A stretch of DNA of 64,000 nt, taken from the NCBI RefSeq assembly GCF_054482595.1, contig NZ_CM137008.1. One strand, 5' to 3'. The position numbers and the translations under genes were made by a program. The first letter of the stretch is position 1, and each line of letters begins with the position of its first letter. The notes beneath the pieces are model-generated. The model had not been told where the DNA came from. It saw only the letters and a program-made list of their open reading frames with translations, and ran no database searches. Of this stretch, positions 2,424 through 58,600 are shown in pieces.

Positions 2424-3800
2424 TTATTTCCGACGCAGCGTTTTAAATGCCACAAACAGGAATACAATCCACACCGGCAGCAGGATCGCTGACAAGCGCA
2501 TATCATCCATCGTGCACATCAGCAGCAAAATCATGCCGAGGAAGGCAATGCAAAGATAGTTGCCGAACGGATAGAGCAGCGCCTTAAACTGTGTTTCACG
2601 CCCCTGACGTCGCATCGCTGCACGAAAACGCAGATGCGCCAGACAGATCATAATCCAGTTCAACAGCAGCGTTGCTACCACCAGCGCCATCAGCAGACCA
2701 AACGCTTTTTGCGGCAGCAGATAGTTGATTAATACCACCAGCGAAGTGATCGCTCCGGAAAGCATCAGCGAGTTAATCGGCACACCGCGACGGCTGACGC
2801 GAGTCAAAAACTTCGGCGCATTACCCTGCACAGAAAGGCCAAACAGCATGCGGCTGTTAGAGTAAACCCCGCTGTTATACACTGACAGCGATGCTACCAG
2901 AATGACGAAGTTCAGCGCAGAAGCTACCACGTTGCTGTCGAGATTATGGAAAATCATCACAAACGGGCTACTGTTGGATTTCACTTCCACCCACGGATAG
3001 AGCGCCAGTAAAACCACCAGTGAACCGATGTAAAACAGCAGGATGCGATACACCACCTGATTTACCGCTTTTGGAATGCTTTTTTCCGGATCGCGCGCTT
3101 CAGCGGCAGTAATCCCAATCAGCTCCAGACCGCCGAAGGAGAACATAATTACCGCCAGCGACAAAATCAGCCCATTCCAGCCGGTGGCAAAGAAACCACC
3201 GTAGCGCCAGAGGTTGTCGATACTGGCTTTCTCGCCGCCGTGACCAGAAAACAGCAGCCACAGGCCAAAGCCGATCATACCGATGATCGCCAGCACTTTA
3301 ATCAACGCAAACCAGAACTCGGTTTCGCCATATAAGCGCACGTTCACCAGGTTAACGGCGTTGATGATAATAAAGAAGGCGGCAGCCCAAATCCACGTTG
3401 GAACATCCGGGAACCAGTACTGCATATAGATGCCCGCAGCGGTCAGCTCTGCCATCCCCACCAGCACGAACATCACCCAGTAGTTCCAGCCAGAGAGGAA
3501 GCCCGCGAACGGTCCCCAGTATTTATAGGCAAAGTGGGCAAACGAACCGGATACCGGCTCTTCGACCACCATCTCGCCGAGCTGGCGCATAATCAGGAAA
3601 GCGATGATCCCGGCGACGCCGTAGCCCAGCAATACAGCCGGACCCGCCATCTGAATCGCCGGGCCAATGCCAAGAAACAGACCAGTACCAATTGCGCCAC
3701 CCAGCGCAATCAGTTGAATATGACGGTTATGTAATCCGCGATGAAGCGTCGGCTCTTGATTCGACGCAGTATCTTCCGATACGGTTGACGCGTTTTTCAC
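2424..3800 (-). CDS. pheP: Phenylalanine-specific permease PheP
   Basis: ORF 2424..3836; probable GTG start at 3798-3800 gives 458 aa (.KNASTVSEDTASNQEPTLHRGL...); multi-pass membrane amino-acid permease. Confidence 0.88.
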   Translation of the reverse strand: MKNASTVSEDTASNQEPTLHRGLHNRHIQLIALGGAIGTGLFLGIGPAIQMAGPAVLLGYGVAGIIAFLIMRQLGEMVVEEPVSGSFAHFAYKYWGPFAGFLSGWNYWVMFVLVGMAELTAAGIYMQYWFPDVPTWIWAAAFFIIINAVNLVNVRLYGETEFWFALIKVLAIIGMIGFGLWLLFSGHGGEKASIDNLWRYGGFFATGWNGLILSLAVIMFSFGGLELIGITAAEARDPEKSIPKAVNQVVYRILLFYIGSLVVLLALYPWVEVKSNSSPFVMIFHNLDSNVVASALNFVILVASLSVYNSGVYSNSRMLFGLSVQGNAPKFLTRVSRRGVPINSLMLSGAITSLVVLINYLLPQKAFGLLMALVVATLLLNWIMICLAHLRFRAAMRRQGRETQFKALLYPFGNYLCIAFLGMILLLMCTMDDMRLSAILLPVWIVFLFVAFKTLRRK

Positions 3801-3901
3801 GCCTTTCCCCTGTGTGTCTTTTTTGTTGAGGGGCACCTTTTAACATTTAGTGCCCATCGTCGCAAGACACAATCCACACGGTTAAACGGGGTATCCTGCT
3901 T

Positions 3902-6900
3902 TTATTTCCGTACCCGATGTCGGTGCAGCCACATCAGCTTATACGCCGCCGGGATAATAAACAGCGACAGCAAAGGTGCGGTGATCATGCCGCCAATCAT
4001 CGGTGCGGCGATCCGGCTCATCACCTCTGACCCTGCTCCTGTTCCCCACAGAATCGGCAGCAGACCAGCGATAATCACCGCCACCGTCATCGCTTTCGGG
4101 CGCACGCGCAGTACCGCGCCGTGATACAACGCCTCATCCAGCTTCTGCTCACTGAATGTTTGCGGATTATTCAACGACGGCTCGGCCTCTATGGCGTGAC
4201 GTAAATACATCAGCATCACCACGCCAAATTCGGCGGCGACCCCGGCAAGGGCAATAAAGCCAGTACCCGTCGCCACGGAAAGATGAAAGCCCATCCACCA
4301 CAGCAACCAGATGCCGCCCACCAGCGCAAACGGTACGCTGCTGATAATCAGCAACGCTTCGCCCACCCGACGGAATGCCAGATACAACAGCACGAAGATG
4401 ATCATCAGTGTCATCGGCACCATGAGTTTCAGCTTATGGTTGGCGCGCTCCAGTAGCTCGAACTGCCCGGAGAATGCCACGCTGGTGCCCGGTTTTAACT
4501 GCACTTTTTCAGCTATCGCTTTTTGCAAATCGTGAACCACCGACACCATGTCACGATCGCGGGCATCGATATAAATCCAGCTCGTCGGGCGCGCATTCTC
4601 GGTTTTCAGCATCGACGGTCCGGTAGAGACTTTAACGTCGGCCACGTCTGCCAGGGTGATTTGCTGCTTCATCGGCGTCAGGATCGGCAACTGGCGCAGT
4701 GCCTGCGGACTATCGCGCCAGCTTTGCGGATAACGCAGATTAATGGGATAACGGGCAATCCCTTCCACCGTTTCGCCAACCATCGCCCCGCCCACCGCAG
4801 AAGTCACAAACAACTGCACATCCGCCACCGTCATACCGTAACGCGCGGCTTTTTCACGGTTAATCTCAACGTTGATATAGCGCCCACCTTCCAGACGCTC
4901 GGCAAGCGCAGAAGCCACGCCTGGTACCGTTCGTGCCACCTCTTCAATTTGCTCCGCCATCGCGTCGATATCCGCCAGCACAGTGCCGGAAACTTTAATG
5001 CCGATGGGGCTTTTAATGCCAGTCGAGAGCATATCGATACGGTTACGAATTGGCGGCACCCACAGATTCGCCAGCCCCGGCAGCCGCACGGTGTTATCCA
5101 GTTCCTCAATGATTTTGTCCATCGTCATGCCAGGCCGCCACTGATCCTGCGGCTTAAGCTGGATGGTCGTTTCTACCATCTCCAGCGGAGCAGAATCGGT
5201 GGCGGTTTCCGCTTTCCCGGTTTTGCCAAATACCCGCGCCACTTCAGGTACGCTCATAATTAGCTTGTCGGTTTTTTGCAGCATACTCGCCGCCTCTGCT
5301 GCGGAAATCCCCGGCAGCGTCGATGGCATATACAACAGGTCGCCTTCATTGATCTGCGGTAAAAATTCCCCGCCAACTTTATTGAGCGGCCAGAGAACCG
5401 TCAGCACCGAAAGCGCTGCCACCAACAGCGTGGTTTTCGGCCAGTGCAGTACTTTCAGCAACAGCGGATGATAAACACGAATCAAAAAGCGATTGAGCGG
5501 GTTACTGCTTTCCGGCGGAATTTTGCCACGGATCCAGTAACCCATCAGGATAGGGATCACTACGATCGCCAGCAGCGCCGCACCCGCCATCGCATAGGTT
5601 TTAGTGAACGCCAGCGGGCCAAACAGACGCCCTTCCTGCCCTTCCAGGGTGAAGATCGGGATAAACGACAACGTGATAATCAGCAGACTGATAAACAGCG
5701 CCGGCCCCACTTCAACAGACGCATCGGTGATCACCTGCCAGCGCGTTTTATTATCCAGCGTGGCGTCAGGATGCTGGTGCTGCCACTCTTCCAGCCGTTT
5801 ATGTGCATTTTCGATCATGACGATAGCGGCATCGACCATCGCCCCGACGGCAATCGCAATGCCGCCCAACGACATAATATTGGCATTCAGTCCCTGGAAG
5901 TGCATGACAATAAAAGCAATACACAACCCCAGCGGCAACGAAATAATCGCCACCAGCGCCGAGCGCACATGCCAGAGAAACAGCGCACAGACTACCGCCA
6001 CCACAATAAACTCTTCCAGCAACTTGCCGCTGAGGTTGTCGATGGCGCGGTCAATGAGCTGGCTGCGATCGTATGTTGTAACTATCTCCACGCCTTCCGG
6101 CAGACTACTTTTCAGCGTTTCCAGTTTGTCCTTCACGGCGGCGATCACTTCTCGGGCGTTTTTGCCGGATCGCAGGATCACCACCCCGCCCGCCACTTCA
6201 CCTTCGCCATTCAGTTCGGCAATGCCCCGGCGCATCTCCGGGCCAATCTGGACCTTCGCAACATCACGCAGATAAACGGGCACGCCATTTTCACTGGCTT
6301 TTAAAACGATGTGATTAAAGTCGTCGAGCGTTTGCAGATAGCCGCTGGCGCGCACCATATATTCCGCTTCCGCCAGTTCGATCGACGAACCGCCCGCTTC
6401 CTGGTTTGAAGCATCCAGCGCGCTTTTTACTTCGGCTAGACTGATGCCATATTGCGCCAGGCGCTGGGGATCGATAACCACCTGATACTCTTTCACCACG
6501 CCGCCCACCGACGCCACTTCCGCAACGTCAGGGATGGTTTTTAGCTCATATTTGAGAAACCAGTCCTGCAATGAGCGTAAATCGGCCAGATCGTGCTTAC
6601 CGCTGCGATCCACCAGTGCATATTCATAGATCCAGCCAACACCCGTGGCATCTGGTCCCAGCTCGGCGCTGACTCCCGCAGGCAGCTTACCCTGTACCTG
6701 GTTGAGGTACTCCAGCACCCGCGAACGCGCCCAGTACGGATCGGTACCATCTTCGAAAATGACATACACATAAGAGTCTCCAAACTGCGAGAAACCGCGC
6801 ACAGTCTTCGCGCCAGGCACCGACAACATGGTGGTGGTTAGCGGATAAGTCACCTGATTTTCAACGATTTGCGGTGCCTGACCGGGATAGCTGGTTTTAA

Positions 6901-7045
6901 TAATCACCTGCACATCGGAGAGATCCGGCAGCGCATCCACTGGCGTGTTAATGATGGTCCAGGTGCCCCAGATGCTCAGAAACAACGCGCCCATCAGCAC
7001 CAAAAAACGGTTCGCCACCGAGCGACGAATAATCCATTCAATCAT
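3902..7045 (-). CDS. cusA: Cu(I)/Ag(I) RND efflux pump CusA
   Basis: 1047-aa ORF with an RND transporter profile; sits at the end of the cusCFBA order. Confidence 0.93.
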
Positions 7046-7056
7046 TGGTTATTCCC

Positions 7057-8280
7057 TCAATGCGCATTGGTAGCACTTTCAGAGCGCATCCGCTCCAGTG
7101 CGCCAGAAATATTGGCTTCGGAATCAATCAGGAACAGGCCGCTGGAAACCACCTTTTCACCTTCCGCCAGACCAGAGTGTAACGCGGTGACGCCTTGCGA
7201 TGCCTGGAAAACGGCAACGCGTTTCGGTACAAAGCGTCCGTCGGCATCAACGGTAATCACCCGCTGTTCGTTGCCGGTATCAATCAGCGCCTGTGACGGA
7301 ATGAGCAGCATCGGTTCGCTGGCGGTATTGAGTTGCAACCAGGCGTTCATGCCCGGTTTTAGCGCCTCGTCGGCGTTGTCGACTTCCAGACGCAGCTGCA
7401 GCGTGCGGGTCGCGGCATCCACGCCAGGTAGCAGCGTCCATTTGCGGATGGTGAGTGTTTTATCCGGTCGCGCCGGAACGGTGAGGGTAAACTGCGAGGC
7501 ATCTTTCACCAGCCAGGCGATGGACTCCGGGATCGCAGCAGTGACCCACACCGGGTCCATACCCTGAATTTTCGCGACCACGTTATCTTTGGCGATATTC
7601 ATTCCCGCGCGCAGATCAAACGCGGTGATCACGCCATCAATGGGCGCTTTGAGCGTAAAGCGAGTCTGGATTTTTTGCGTGGCGATCAGGCGGCGAATAT
7701 CCGCCTCCGGCATTCCCGCCAGTCGCAGCCGCTCAAGAATGCCTTCAGTCTGGGTCGCCGTACCGCCGGTTTCGCGCAGCAGTAAATACTCAGTCTGCGC
7801 TTCCACCCAGTCAGGAATGGTCAGGTCGAGAAGCGGTGTGCCCTTTTGTACTTTATCGCCCACGGTAAGCGGATACACCTTGTCGATAAACCCGGCAGCG
7901 CGAGCCTGCACAATGGCATACTGATACTCGTTGTAACTGACATTCGCCGGGAAACTCTGGGCAAAAGTCAGCGGTCCGCGCGTGACGGTAGCCGTTTTCA
8001 CCCCCAGATTCTGCGTCTGAGTCGGGTCAATGCGCACACCAGACGCAGAACTCTCTTCATCGGCATATTTCGGCACCAGATCCATATCCATAAACGGCGA
8101 TTTACCTGGTTTATCGAACCGCATATTGGGATACATCGGGTCGTACCAGAATAAGATTTTACGTTCTGCGGTCGACGTTTTTTCTGCAGGCGGTTCCGCC
8201 TTTGCAACCCAGGTAAAACCTGCCGCAGAAATAATACCGCCCGCGATCATGCTGCCGATAATAAGCGCGATTTTTTTCAT
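7057..8280 (-). CDS. cusB: Periplasmic adaptor (membrane fusion protein) CusB
   Basis: 407-aa ORF between cusF and cusA. Confidence 0.9.
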   Translation of the reverse strand: MKKIALIIGSMIAGGIISAAGFTWVAKAEPPAEKTSTAERKILFWYDPMYPNMRFDKPGKSPFMDMDLVPKYADEESSASGVRIDPTQTQNLGVKTATVTRGPLTFAQSFPANVSYNEYQYAIVQARAAGFIDKVYPLTVGDKVQKGTPLLDLTIPDWVEAQTEYLLLRETGGTATQTEGILERLRLAGMPEADIRRLIATQKIQTRFTLKAPIDGVITAFDLRAGMNIAKDNVVAKIQGMDPVWVTAAIPESIAWLVKDASQFTLTVPARPDKTLTIRKWTLLPGVDAATRTLQLRLEVDNADEALKPGMNAWLQLNTASEPMLLIPSQALIDTGNEQRVITVDADGRFVPKRVAVFQASQGVTALHSGLAEGEKVVSSGLFLIDSEANISGALERMRSESATNAH

Positions 8281-54230: not shown

Positions 54231-54638
54231 GTGTCGAATCCTTATCCAAAACAAGAGGTAACTCTCATGCTTCATACTGCCAATCCCGTCATCAAACACA
54301 AAGCCGGTTTGCTCAATCTGGCTGAAGAACTCAGCAACGTATCAAAAGCCTGTAAAATCATGGGCGTTTCGCGTGATACGTTTTATCGTTACCGCGAACT
54401 GGTCGCTGAAGGCGGTGTGGATGCGCAGATTAATCGTAGTCGCCGCGCTCCTAACCTTAAGAACCGTACCGATGAGGCAACTGAACAGGCTGTTGTTGAT
54501 TACGCCGTCGCTTTCCCGACACATGGTCAGCACCGGGCCAGCAACGAGCTGCGTAAACAGGGGGTTTTTATCTCCGACAGTGGTGTCCGTTCTGTCTGGT
54601 TACTCCATAACCTTGAGAATCTCAAAAGACGATACTGA
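54231..54638 (+). pseudogene. Truncated transposase-like ORF (N-terminal HTH only); IS remnant, possibly ylbG-like
   Basis: 135-aa ORF with an HTH (LSNVSKACKIMGVSRDTFYRYRELV) typical of IS-transposase N-termini; no catalytic domain follows and no terminal inverted repeats were recognised. Confidence 0.5.
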
Positions 54639-54689
54639 ACAAATTTTATCAGGTGACGTTCCGTAAAAAGTTGTATGGAGTTCTCGATG

Positions 54690-54790
54690 CAGTCGGCGCG
54701 ACTATCAGTACCCCCGCTGAACCCTGGACTATCGGGCCGCCGTACTGGGGCATGTCACCCTGGCGTGCCGCTGGTTTTCCGCTAATGGTT
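54690..54790 (-). pseudogene. Orphan rhs 5' fragment (about 100 bp homologous to the start of the full rhs gene)
   Basis: Minus-strand sequence attagcggaaaaccagcggcacgccagggtgacatgccccagtacggcggcccgatagtccagggttcagcggg... is about 85% identical to the rhs start at 59730-59827; ATG is replaced by ATT and homology is lost after about 33 codons. Confidence 0.7.
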
Positions 54791-55152
54791 TATTTCCTCT
54801 TTCTTTCCCGGCAAGAATTTATTTTAATCCGGAAGGATTATTTATTTTCAGATAGGGACTCACATTAAACACGTAACATTTTAATTAATGCATGGCTGAA
54901 TATGTATTACACAATGTCAGATATCGTAAAAGACCAGTGCAATTCTATGTAAACTCTCTGACTGTTCATTTTATTTGTTGCTTCAGGGTCGGAACTCACC
55001 CTCAATAAACAACTGAATACGAGTAGATATTCATCGTCTGAGCTATATGGCTTTACACAATAGCCGACATGTCTTTTCTCAGTCAGGATTTTTACTTTTC
55101 CTCACTACGAAGTTGACGACTTCGATATGGGATAGACTCTTAATTCAAGCAA

Positions 55153-55644
55153 TTACTCTGCACAAGCATCAGGCAATCCAGCTCCAATATTTGTTATAAA
55201 ATAATGCGTAACATTAATTTCACCAACAAAAAAAAGATTTACGCTATCCCCTTGCCCTGGTATTTTACCATATTTACACCACACTTTTTTTGTATCTGGA
55301 TCATTCTTTGATACGATTTTCGCCACTTGTTCCCTGGCCCTCACCGTCAATGTTTTCTTAAACCTCCCCCCATCATCGATTGTTAGGGAAAAATAAGAAA
55401 AAAAATAATCATCTTCTACATTTGTGGATATTGATATATCCACCGCTACGTGCGGAAAAAAATCTGGGAGCCATGTAAAAACTCCATCATTTTCTGGTAT
55501 TGCCATATAGTTTATGTAATGCTTACTTACAAGAGATTCATCTTTGTGTAAATAAAGATAAGTAGTCACGCATAAAAAAACAACGATTATAATAGCAAAA
55601 ATAAATATTACCATCTTTGAGATGTTACTTGAGATAGCCACCAT
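55153..55644 (-). CDS. Putative Rhs immunity protein (RhsI-like), small protein with N-terminal TM helix
   Basis: 163-aa ORF immediately downstream of the rhs toxin tip; the ORF start overlaps the rhs stop by 20 bp, or an alternative Met11 start lies just after it; hydrophobic N-terminus ([22 protein letters not shown]); low GC like the toxin tip. Confidence 0.6.
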
Positions 55645-58600
55645 CTTGTAAAGCCTTTATCGTTTTTTTATGCTCTGGATTAATATAATCAATACATCTA
55701 TTTGAGCAATCTTGTGTTAATGGACATGTCAACCCATGTTCATTTACAGCCAAGTCTTTTTTATTATCTTCAATCATCTCAGAATGGGATAACTTTACTT
55801 TTCTGCCGTACATACCGAACATATTTAACCCGTAATCTCTAATCTCTTTTTCATAACCCAGCCCTTTCGCCGATCGGCTAACACCAGCGTCATTTAATTT
55901 AGACACTCGACAAAATGCCATACAATGGAAAAATTGATCAGTCCCACCTAAATTTAATCTCTTCATATCATCATAAGTATCAGATAATATATCCCATGCT
56001 CTTTGATGGTTTAGTTGTTCTTTTTTTCGCATTAACGCTACATCTGCAGGACTTAACCCTAATGGATCAATACCATTCACCGGATACGCATACAGACTCC
56101 ATCCCCCCGCCAGCCCAATCGGGTCCTGAGTAATATATCGTCCCAGCAACGGATTGTAGTACCGGTTCCGGTTATAATACAGCCCCGACTCCTCATCATA
56201 CTGCTGCCCTGGCAGACGGTACGGCTGATACACATGATGCGGGTTCTCCTCATTAAGCTGGTTGCCCCATTCATCATATTCCGCGCTCCACGCCGTATTG
56301 CCGTCTTCGCTGATAAGCGCCAGCGGCAGTCCCCGGTGGTCGCAGTGATAAAGATGAGCTTTTCGCGCCGGTGTGTATTCCGGCTCCACCTGTCTGGCCA
56401 GTTGCTCCACCGTCAGCCCGCACTGCGCAAGCCACGCCCGGCTTTCACTGCTCACGCGGTCTGCCCGGATTTCTTCCTCCAGTCTGTCCAGCAGCCGCAC
56501 CAGTTCAGCCGGAAATACCACGCCGTGCCCGTCCTCGCTCCCTTCCTGCTGCAGCTTCTCCGCCAGGCTGCGGCGCTGCGCTTTCTCCCGCTCGCCGTTG
56601 TCTGTTTCGATGCGGATGAGCGGCGCGAAGCTCCCCGGCTGATATACCGTCTGGATACGCGTGGTGTCGGTCTGTACCGTCGTCAGCCGGTCGCCGTCCC
56701 ACCCGTACCACGTCACCTCCGGTTTCCGCGACAGCGACATCCATCCCGTCAGGTCACGCTCGCGACGCCACACCCGTTTCCCTGTCCGGCGACCCAGCGG
56801 GTCGTAAAGGTATCGGCTCTCGACCAGCGGCTCCTCATATTGGATACGGATGTAATGGACCAGGCGGTGCAGGCTGTCGTAATGGTAGTGATGGGTGCGC
56901 TCGTCGTCCGTCCGTATCACACCCGCCGGGATGCGGTCCGTCTTCTCCGTCAGTCTGCCGTATTCATCGTAGTGGTAAACATAGTGCGCATCCTTCGCGA
57001 TGCGGTTATCCGGCCACACTGTGAGGGTACTGTCCGGGTGCAGCTCCGGGTCCGGCAGGCGGTTTCCCGCCGGGTCGGTGGCATACGGGATGCGGATGTC
57101 CAGGTCCGGTGCGAGGGTACGCACGCTCTCCAGCCTGCCCGTGGCGCTGTAGCCGTATTCCCGCGTCTGTCGCGGGCCGCTGATGCGCACCAGGTCGCCG
57201 TTGTCATTCCACCCGTAGTCACGGTCATACACCAGGCTGTTCAGGTGCTGGCTCTGTAACTGGCCTGCGGGGGTGTATGTGCTGGTCAGTTTATATGCGG
57301 CATTACTGCCTGCCATGCTGCCAAAGCTGCGCACCGTCTCCCGGTGCATGCGGTCGCGCGTGTACTCCAGCAGCGGCGTGTCGCCAAGCTTCATGCCCGC
57401 CAGATAACCGCTGCCGTAGGTCAGCCACTCCACCGGCGGCAGGCTGTCCGGCGTGACGCGGTTTGCCAGCCCCTGTTCGTTGTAGGCGTGTGTTGTCTCA
57501 TGCTGCCACAGCAGTTCCCCCGTCTCCGGGTTCTCCACCGTCTGCCGTTCGCCGGTCAGGCGGCCCTTATCGTCGTAGCCGTAGTGGACAGCGACACGGT
57601 GGCCTTCGCTCAGGTGGCTGATGTCTGTCAGCCAGCCGTGGTCATCATACTGCCACTGCTCTGCCGGTTCGCCGTTCACCGTGCGGTGAGTGATACGGTC
57701 CGATTCATCGTAGTACCAGAGGGTGACAAGCCCCTCATCTTCACTCTGCGTGAGTTTTCCGGTCAGGTCATAATGATAACGCTGCGTCCGCCCGTCAAAG
57801 CCGCCCTGCTGTACCAACCGGTCCAGCGCATCGTAGCTGAAGTCGCTGTGGCTGCCGTTCTCGTTAGTCAGACTGATGACACGTCCGGCAGCATCGTACT
57901 CCATACTGCGCGTCAGCCCGCCCTGCGTGGTGCTGACCGCCTTTCCCCACGCATCGTACTGTGTCTCGCTCCGGTTGCCGTCCGGGGTGATAACGGCAGT
58001 CAGGTCGCCTGCGGCGTTGTACTCATACTGCGTTTCACGGCCCTGTGCGTCTTTCACCGAGGTTAACCGGCCACGGTTGTCATAGTGGCGGTAAAGGCTG
58101 ATACCTTCCTCGCGGTGAACCGCCGTCATCTGGCCGAAGCGGTCGTATTCATAGCGGGTCTGGTAGCCCGAGCAGTCGGTGAACGCCAGCAACTGACCGT
58201 AGCGGCTCCACGTCATCTGCCGGGTGCTGCCCGTCGCATCTGTTGTCGTGGCCGGTAATTCACTGTGCGCATCATCATAGCGGTAGCGTACTGTCTCCCC
58301 GCTGCGCGATGTCTCCGTTACCAGCCTGTCCAGTTCATCATATGCCCGGCGGCTCTCCAGCCCGTCCGGGGACACCACCGCCGTCAGCTGGTTCCCGTCG
58401 TTATAGTAAAATTTCGTCTCCCGCCCGTCCGGTGTGGTGATGTCCGTGATATCGCCGGACACCACATTCAGACCGTACTCTGTCCGCCGTCCCGCCGCGT
58501 CCGTCTGCGCCGTGAGCCTTCCTGCCGCGTCATACCCGCTGTGCGTGACGCTGCCATCCGCCAGTTCTTTTTTCACCACCCGTTTCAGCCCGCCTTCACC

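Follow-up and report, generated by a model that had tools for sequence, protein, structure and literature searches.

The 64,000-nucleotide stretch of DNA analyzed here (NCBI RefSeq assembly GCF_054482595.1, contig NZ_CM137008.1; hereafter the window) harbors, on its minus strand, a full-length Rhs polymorphic toxin gene (55625..59827; 1400 aa plus stop) whose 142-residue C-terminal tip is a bacterial homolog of serum amyloid A (SAA) and belongs to the Prok-SAA family of the Lipocone superfamily, as evidenced by sequence profiles, predicted fold and conserved residues. The tip is directly followed, on the same strand, by ybbD (55153..55644), which encodes a 163-aa protein of the YbbD_head family; as judged from sequence, the pairing of the two is conserved and YbbD is the immunity-type partner of the tip. 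An earlier reading of the same DNA (the original prediction) had correctly recognized a polymorphic toxin of the Rhs type, a tip acquired by horizontal exchange and an immunity-type gene, and had considered both the tip and the downstream open reading frame (ORF) to be of unassignable family, an assessment that the results presented here overturn for both proteins.

The Rhs product is recognized by the NCBIfam RHS_core model (NF041261), which spans residues 1-1258 with 2718 bits, it contains YD repeats (TIGR01643) in 10 stretches and it is annotated in RefSeq as "RHS element core protein". Its N-terminus presents a PAAR-like motif (residues 1-42; 59702..59827, minus strand), with a weak Pfam PAAR_motif match, and a DUF6531 domain (residues 46-123; 59459..59692, minus strand; Pfam PF20148, E 1.4e-18), and its core closes with an Rhs-associated core domain (residues 1184-1258; 56054..56278, minus strand; TIGR03696, E 7.7e-20). 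RHS_core and Rhs_assc_core both end at DPLGL, the boundary anticipated by the original prediction; translation of 55625-56083 on the minus strand places this motif at 56054-56068, 3 nt away from the interval of about 56051-56065 first given for it. The tip that follows (S1259-K1400; 55628..56053, minus strand) has exactly the sequence originally quoted and comprises 142 residues, not 146. As predicted, the tip and the downstream ORF are lower in GC than the core: GC content is 0.631 in the Rhs core, 0.354 in the tip, 0.343 in ybbD and 0.518 in the whole window, and the fall from 63% to 35% coincides with DPLGL. The ATG of ybbD lies inside the Rhs reading frame, giving a 20-nt overlap with the Rhs stop region, and the gene is annotated in RefSeq as "YbbD family protein". 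Because both ORFs are annotated in RefSeq, have conserved homologs and are widespread in E. coli, they are genuine genes and not chance ORFs.

To refer to tip residues we number the G of GIDPLGL as 1, so that adding 1251 yields the Rhs numbering. The tip alone is matched by the Pfam SAA family (PF00277) over model positions 9-84 of 102, with an independent E-value (i-E) of 2.9e-4. A word-indexed homolog search with the tip returned near-identical E. coli and Hafnia tips only, and an exhaustive search of 1.84 billion representatives yielded 93 clusters at E ≤ 0.001, with many of the matches located C-terminally in longer proteins; of these, the ones looked up carry RHS/YD-shell domains. Pfam SAA matches 30 of 44 tip relatives, the domain sequences that make up alignment A2, at E ≤ 0.001 (best 6.1e-24), and the 44-sequence family profile retrieves SAA structures from the PDB with E-values of 1.7e-13 (7zh7), 1.1e-10 (4ip8) and 1e-9 (4q5g), in alignments spanning helices 1-4. 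Such significance required the family profile, since a single-sequence phmmer search of the tip against the PDB detected SAA at E 0.18 only. In the profile alignment, tip residues M37, D46, H50, E77, D103, D107, N111 and G114 correspond to M24, D33, H37, E63, D75, D79, N83 and G86 of human SAA1, respectively.

The predicted structure of the tip leads to the same family. The AlphaFold2 model obtained with alignment A2 (predicted local distance difference test, pLDDT, 94.4; predicted template-modelling score, pTM, 0.86) contains helices at residues 9-40, 46-58, 63-85, 97-115, 123-130 and 136-144, and its predicted fold is a four-helix cone with a shorter fifth helix packed beside helices 2 and 4, as in the definition of the Prok-SAA Lipocones, followed by a second short C-terminal helix. 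When this model was compared with the PDB using Foldseek, the top seven matches were all SAA1 or SAA3 structures, at probability 1.0 and target-normalised template-modelling (TM) scores of 0.69-0.74, and the remaining matches were noise. A scan of NCBIfam, by comparison, returned no family for the tip, and no nuclease, deaminase, ADP-ribosyltransferase or peptidase profile in NCBIfam or Pfam matched it; Pfam Peptidase_C7 gave a weak, non-significant score (E 0.038). The original prediction had likewise placed no motif of the tip in these families. No match of the tip to a toxin domain already characterized together with its immunity partner was found.

The conservation of individual residues, assessed on 63 representatives, delineates a polar pocket accompanied by two pairs of cysteines. 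Residues D46, H50, C51, E77, D107, N111 and C123 are invariant in all 63 sequences, C55, D80, G114 and C127 are kept in 62 and D103 in 61, and every conserved residue is present in the window tip (in Rhs numbering, D1297, H1301, E1328, D1331, D1354, D1358, N1362 and Cys1302/1306/1374/1378). The polar set is distributed over three helices, with Asp46 and His50 on helix 2, Glu77 and Asp80 on helix 3, and Asp103, Asp107 and Asn111 on helix 4. The i, i+3/i+4 spacing of D46/H50, C51/C55, E77/D80, D103/D107/N111 and C123/C127 indicates that the members of each set share a single face of their helix. Helix 5 is probably stapled to helix 2 by two disulfides, formed by the CxxxC pairs Cys51/55 (helix 2) and Cys123/127 (helix 5).

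This arrangement fits a published description. Burroughs, Nicastro and Aravind (eLife 2025, PMC12419801) united SAA, Wnt, TelC, PTDSS and VanZ in the Lipocone superfamily, whose pocket is composed of a His in helix 2, a Glu in helix 3, an acidic residue ending helix 3 and an Asp in helix 4, and the tip presents the corresponding His, Glu and acidic residue together with Asp/Asn in helix 4 and a Gly capping that helix. The superfamily is predicted to act on phosphate-linked lipid head groups (PMC12419801), an action that has been shown for TelC and PTDSS1/2 only. Within the SAA-Wnt (SAW) clade, the same authors described Prok-SAA domains as the tips of polymorphic toxins, and every Lipocone immunity protein published is either membrane-spanning or a lipoprotein. 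Their Prok-SAA list contains near relatives of the tip (HAU8267270.1 and WP_074823867.1, with motifs DQFFHC.AFCRVSK and CP...C..RC), as well as one of our search hits, P0124 (UDQ98389.1), and the presence of these near relatives places the tip in a computationally catalogued family. The existence of an SAA homolog that serves as a bacterial toxin is hence already published in general form; E. coli, ylbH and ybbD are not named in that study, and literature searches turned up no assay of any Prok-SAA toxin and, for ylbH, rhsH, ybbD and Lipocone, no functional work.

The downstream protein can also be assigned to a family. YbbD matches NCBIfam NF011298 over residues 1-163 of 163 with 372.8 bits (cutoff 326), Pfam PF26610 (YbbD_head) is recorded on a 97%-identical relative, and the cluster of intact 163-aa YbbD proteins comprises 1365 member sequences. 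In agreement with the membrane anchoring originally predicted for a 163-aa ORF directly following the tip, the N-terminus of the protein forms a single, strongly hydrophobic helix (Kyte-Doolittle 3.0-3.35), which we delimit as a transmembrane anchor at residues about 4-32 (55549..55635, minus strand) based on the AlphaFold2 helix at 4-32 and on hydropathy and charge bias across the family. An N-terminal anchor is present in 33 of 33 YbbD relatives, replaced in four of them by a lipoprotein lipobox (e.g. LLAAC at locus L011), and net charge averages +3.2 ahead of the anchor and -1.6 behind it, which corresponds to an N-in/C-out orientation in 32 of the 33. The N-terminal anchor, the charge bias and the lipoboxes together predict that the soluble domain of YbbD is periplasmic. 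Cys123 and Cys161 of YbbD either co-occur or are both absent across the family.

Inspection of Rhs-linked loci revealed a YbbD-family gene directly behind the tip relative in five of the six looked up, at tip identities of 53% (L004), 50% (L007), 45% (L009/L010), 42% (L013) and 38% (L011). PF26610 is recorded at four of the paired loci, and the membership of the unmarked L007 partner rests on alignment A3 and on the search seeded with it. In the sixth Rhs-linked relative (P0059, L008) no downstream gene was called on the same strand. The SAA protein P0100, which is not linked to Rhs, has no adjacent YbbD-like gene, and pairing with YbbD is therefore specific to the Rhs-linked subgroup. At one of these loci, L004 (GCA_003324795.1, CP029992.1), positions 2800-7200 of the locus contain an array of orphan Rhs modules beside a LysR gene, in the order Ntox16 fragment, DUF6714, SAA-like tip with YbbD_head, and TseH with Imm58; the SAA-like cassette thus moves as a single unit amid other toxin/immunity pairs.

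Comparison with E. coli K-12 MG1655 shows that the cassette corresponds to long-known pseudogenes. At the same position K-12 presents the order rhsD-ybbC-ylbH-ybbD-ylbI-ylbG, in which pseudogene ylbH, an orphan Rhs C-terminal fragment, is the equivalent of the window tip and pseudogene ybbD that of the 163-aa ORF. The two sequences are collinear and closely similar from inside ylbH through ylbI; across the 1.8 kb that align, columns are on average 94% identical, a figure depressed by a 5' flank that is unrelated. The K-12 tip is an orphan located after the rhsD-CT/ybbC module, and the ybbD gene of K-12 carries a frameshift. The window lacks that module: its ylbH-type tip, distinct from the rhsD tip of K-12, continues the reading frame of a full core, and its ybbD is intact. 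The frameshift maps to a homopolymer that alignments with K-12 and O157:H7 EDL933 identify as T8 in the window (55398..55405, minus strand; A8 on the plus strand) and T7 in both of those genomes, where the loss of one base truncates YbbD to 86 aa; NCBIfam carries a separate model, NF011297, for this 86-aa form. A further difference, of 9 bp and in frame, distinguishes the window from both K-12 and EDL933 at about 56069-56083, just upstream of DPLGL, and sits at the core/tip junction, where recombination among rhs copies is expected. The K-12 pair ybfO-ybfC, the orphan pair of rhsC, was considered as a paralogous module and ruled out, as its tip and downstream protein are unrelated to those of the window.

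The cassette is common in the species. Of 5426 complete E. coli genomes, 2730 contain at least 80% of the stretch 54600-56300. When the layout was scored in an evenly spaced sample of 36 carrier genomes, tip and core formed one continuous piece in 11, including O157:H7 EDL933, O55:H7, O111:H8 and O121, and the K-12-type orphan layout was seen in the other 25.

Regarding delivery, no type VI secretion system (T6SS), vgrG or hcp gene lies within the window, as stated in the original prediction, which on these grounds had left the route of delivery open. Although no secretion genes are present, the route is narrowed by the N-terminus of the Rhs protein, which contains a literal PAAR motif followed by DUF6531, and by its similarity to an Rhs protein encoded in a T6SS cluster. 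The nearest complete genome, that of E. coli XH990 (NZ_CP019359.1), is 99.9-100% identical over the region, and 100% identical over 55700-56700, and it carries a T6SS cluster (hcp-vgrG-Rhs-tssB..tssM) at the aspV island (3859000-3905000), about 330 kb away, with its own hcp-vgrG-Rhs-TPR module. Over its first 200 aa, the Rhs protein beside hcp-vgrG in that cluster shares 75% identity with that of the window. "Neighbourless" E. coli Rhs proteins of this kind have been grouped with the Rhs proteins linked to T6SS2 (Ma et al. 2017, as summarized in the review PMC6730261), and K-12 itself is without a T6SS (PMC6730261). The Rhs protein is thus likely delivered by a T6SS encoded elsewhere in the genome.

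Taken together, these data suggest a mechanism of action. As in known Rhs proteins, the Rhs shell would enclose the 142-aa tip and free it by self-cleavage after DPLGL, and a T6SS encoded elsewhere in the genome would then put the tip into the periplasm of a neighboring cell. There, the His/Glu/Asp/Asn pocket of the soluble cone, putatively stapled by disulfides, would cleave or swap the phosphate-linked head group of an envelope lipid. An undecaprenyl-pyrophosphate-linked wall precursor such as lipid II is the likeliest target, as for the distantly related TelC, and the outcome would be failure of the cell wall or envelope. YbbD, its translation presumably coupled to that of the toxin, would be held in the inner membrane by its anchor, expose its alpha/beta domain to the periplasm and bind the tip in that compartment, thereby sparing the producer. 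Periplasmic action is favored because of the predicted topology of YbbD and its cysteine pair, the near-invariant cysteines of the tip and the precedent set by TelC and the Lipocone immunity proteins. We are fairly confident that the tip acts in the periplasm and is neutralized by periplasmic YbbD; for the whole chain, from T6SS delivery through attack on a phosphate-linked lipid head group to blockage by YbbD, the case for and the case against seem to us evenly balanced.

Several observations weigh against this mechanism. The chemistry on lipid head groups derives from the prediction of one comparative paper and from TelC and PTDSS, which belong to other clades, and no match between TelC and the tip was obtained by sequence (profile search, E ≤ 10) or by fold search. 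The SAW-clade motif sNxxGR is partly kept, as VNEHGL, with Asn and Gly preserved, Leu in place of Arg and Val at the "small" position. The nearest solved toxin structure, BteO, to which the tip shows fold similarity, has been published as non-enzymatic. With respect to delivery, the two Pfam PAAR_motif matches at the Rhs N-terminus (E 0.14 and 1.4) fall below significance, and tssH (internal stop) and VasL (frameshift) of XH990 are annotated as pseudogenes, suggesting that the T6SS of that strain may be defective or mis-sequenced. EDL933 retains a fused tip on a full Rhs core yet encodes the 86-aa truncated YbbD, a combination that sits uneasily with an active, self-delivered toxin. Finally, the homologous AT-rich cassette of K-12 is covered by H-NS and StpA (PMC9948719), and hence the cassette, and perhaps the whole element, may be silent.

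The relevance of BteO is that it points to a different mode of action for a similar fold. Rather than catalyzing a reaction, the groove of the tip could clamp the peptidoglycan-binding C-terminal domain of an OmpA-family or other envelope protein, uncoupling the outer membrane from the cell wall, and YbbD would protect by filling the groove. This is the mode proposed for the BteO-BtiO pair of the Bacteroides fragilis T6SS (PDB 9UU0), where BteO was reported as a non-enzymatic binder of the OmpA C-terminal domain (He et al., PNAS 2025, PMC12541434) that acts in the periplasm only and is toxic to E. coli too, causing elongation, blebbing and lysis. Its groove residues H144, E168, D187 and D191 are required for both toxicity and OmpA binding (PMC12541434), and their spacing appears to resemble that of H50, E77, D107 and N111 in the tip family; since it is also the spacing of the Lipocone pocket, BteO is perhaps a diverged relative and its mode may apply to the tip. 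Vertebrate SAA, in addition, has been reported to bind E. coli OmpA (Hari-Dass 2005, as cited in later work). No sequence similarity between BteO and the tip was found by sequence profile at E ≤ 10. The invariance of His, Glu, Asp and Asn over 63 distant representatives is, however, more typical of catalysis than of an interface with a variable target, and YbbD is unlike the OmpA-mimicking BtiO; the idea that YbbD could itself be a mimic of the OmpA C-terminal domain was discarded, as no such fold match was found. On balance, we regard a purely binding tip as unlikely. A second non-catalytic mode, in which the tip would bind lipids like mammalian SAA and extract, sequester or permeabilize them, draws on the nature of SAA as a lipid- and retinol-binding apolipoprotein, with retinol-bound SAA3 among the Foldseek matches of the tip, and on the membrane anchoring of the immunity protein. 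Such physical damage to membranes is improbable given that the tip is strongly hydrophilic (grand average of hydropathy, GRAVY, -0.70, with a best 19-aa hydropathy window of 0.55; about -0.73 to -1.16 in the published Prok-SAA set) and has no amphipathic or hydrophobic segment of insertion length, that its invariant residues are polar or acidic and not hydrophobic, and that, on general reasoning, delivery of a single molecule per T6SS firing favors a catalytic toxin.

Two further alternatives question whether the cassette acts at all and in which compartment it does so. The coverage of the homologous K-12 region by H-NS and StpA, the frameshift of ybbD in K-12 and EDL933, the confinement of the tip to an orphan position behind rhsD-ybbC in about 25 of the 36 sampled carriers and the two annotated pseudogenes in the T6SS of the nearest genome would all be accounted for by a silenced or decaying Rhs element that is kept by drift and plays no current role in competition. 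We give this reading little credence for the window, where both ORFs are intact, the tip is in frame with a complete core and the conserved residues are all there, and where the intact 163-aa YbbD belongs to a cluster of 1365 sequences; moreover, orphan Rhs tips can be reactivated by recombination, as Koskiniemi is said to have reported in 2014. Action in the cytoplasm, for instance as a metal-dependent hydrolase, would assign a different role to H50, C51, C55, C123 and C127, which could in principle bind metal, and could invoke the non-significant Peptidase_C7 match. It appears highly improbable: CxxxC pairs on two packed helices follow the pattern of a disulfide staple and not that of zinc knuckles, the soluble domain of YbbD is predicted to be periplasmic and in some relatives is that of a lipoprotein, no nuclease, deaminase, ADP-ribosyltransferase or peptidase profile matches the tip, and the SAA and Wnt homologs are secreted, pointing outside the cytoplasm.

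The identification of this cassette has implications beyond the locus. Few human acute-phase proteins are induced more strongly than SAA, whose molecular function is disputed, and the locus puts a well-conserved Prok-SAA member in ordinary E. coli, with about half of the complete genomes carrying the cassette. What is new here is the identification of everyday E. coli representatives of the family, namely K-12 ylbH/ybbD and the main Rhs protein of this strain and of enterohemorrhagic E. coli (EHEC) lineages, and the linking of YbbD_head to this subgroup of Prok-SAA toxins as its predicted immunity family. Four long-unexplained K-12 genes or pseudogenes thereby gain a predicted function, and the Lipocone/SAA prediction becomes cheaply testable in the best-understood bacterium. 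A more far-reaching proposal, which we put forward tentatively and consider doubtful as it stands, is that the ylbH-type tip is an active periplasmic enzyme or OmpA-domain binder using the same pocket as vertebrate SAA, whose activity would have been inherited from bacterial Rhs/T6SS toxins. If so, the long-debated activity of SAA, including its reported binding to OmpA, could be worked out with an E. coli toxin/immunity assay, and BteO would represent a divergent relative within this superfamily that works through the same pocket.

The genomic surroundings are those of the E. coli chromosome around the rhsD locus, which occupies the stretch from about 48.5 kb on, with the gene order gcl, allR, allA, allS, mnmH, ylbG fragment, rhs 5' relic, 163-aa ORF, Rhs, ybbP, ybbA and tesA; elsewhere, the window is ordinary E. 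coli chromosome (cus ... gcl-allR-allA-allS-mnmH ... ybbP-ybbA-tesA). Downstream of ybbD lies a ylbI-like relic of another rhs 5' end (54691..54786, minus strand), identical to K-12 ylbI, with its start ATG changed to ATT and annotated in RefSeq as a partial pseudogene; it was probably left over from an earlier Rhs rearrangement at this element. The element is bounded by a ylbG fragment on the plus strand (54231..54638), an HTH/transposase-like ORF adjoining mnmH that RefSeq annotates as "ylbG helix-turn-helix domain-containing protein, incomplete". Upstream of the Rhs gene, the intergenic stretch 59828-60256 is very AT-rich (GC content 0.284), like the tip cassette.

Among known systems, the closest counterpart of the tip is the Prok-SAA family at large, with which it shares the four-helix cone and short fifth helix, the His/Glu/Asp/Asn pocket, the DxxFHC and ANxxG motifs, the CxxxC pairs and a C-terminal position on Rhs/T6SS polymorphic toxins followed by a membrane-anchored immunity gene. 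The enterobacterial subgroup differs from the rest in having Leu or another residue for the Arg of sNxxGR, an 11-residue loop between helices 3 and 4, and a sixth helix. The immunity domain described for Prok-SAA toxins, Imm-SAA, combines one helix with four strands, contains four invariant cysteines and usually follows a transmembrane helix (PMC12419801); YbbD likewise has a transmembrane anchor, but it presents two extracytoplasmic cysteines and eight predicted strands, and on this comparison of descriptions only it shows no obvious fit. Vertebrate SAA (SAA1/SAA3; PF00277; 4IP8, 4Q5G, 6PY0) is homologous to the tip over helices 1-4, but is a free, secreted acute-phase apolipoprotein devoid of cysteines, Rhs carrier and immunity partner, whereas the tip contains two CxxxC pairs and is extended by two further helices at its C-terminus.

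Of the two toxin systems with which the tip can be compared, BteO differs in being a stand-alone effector with its own transmembrane helix and no Rhs carrier, and its partner BtiO is an OmpA-C-like mimic with a signal peptide, unlike YbbD. BteO (9UU0) may itself be an unrecognized Lipocone, in which case its "non-enzymatic" label may need re-testing. The TelC-TipC pair of Streptococcus intermedius belongs to another clade, to a type VII secretion system (T7SS) and to a Gram-positive organism, and TipC is unrelated to YbbD. TelC too is a polymorphic toxin tip, assigned by Burroughs et al. to the Lipocone superfamily; it acts solely outside the cytoplasm and is blocked by an immunity protein on the membrane or the periplasm side. 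As a lipid II phosphatase, and the only biochemically characterized Lipocone toxin, it provides the template for the chemistry proposed here.

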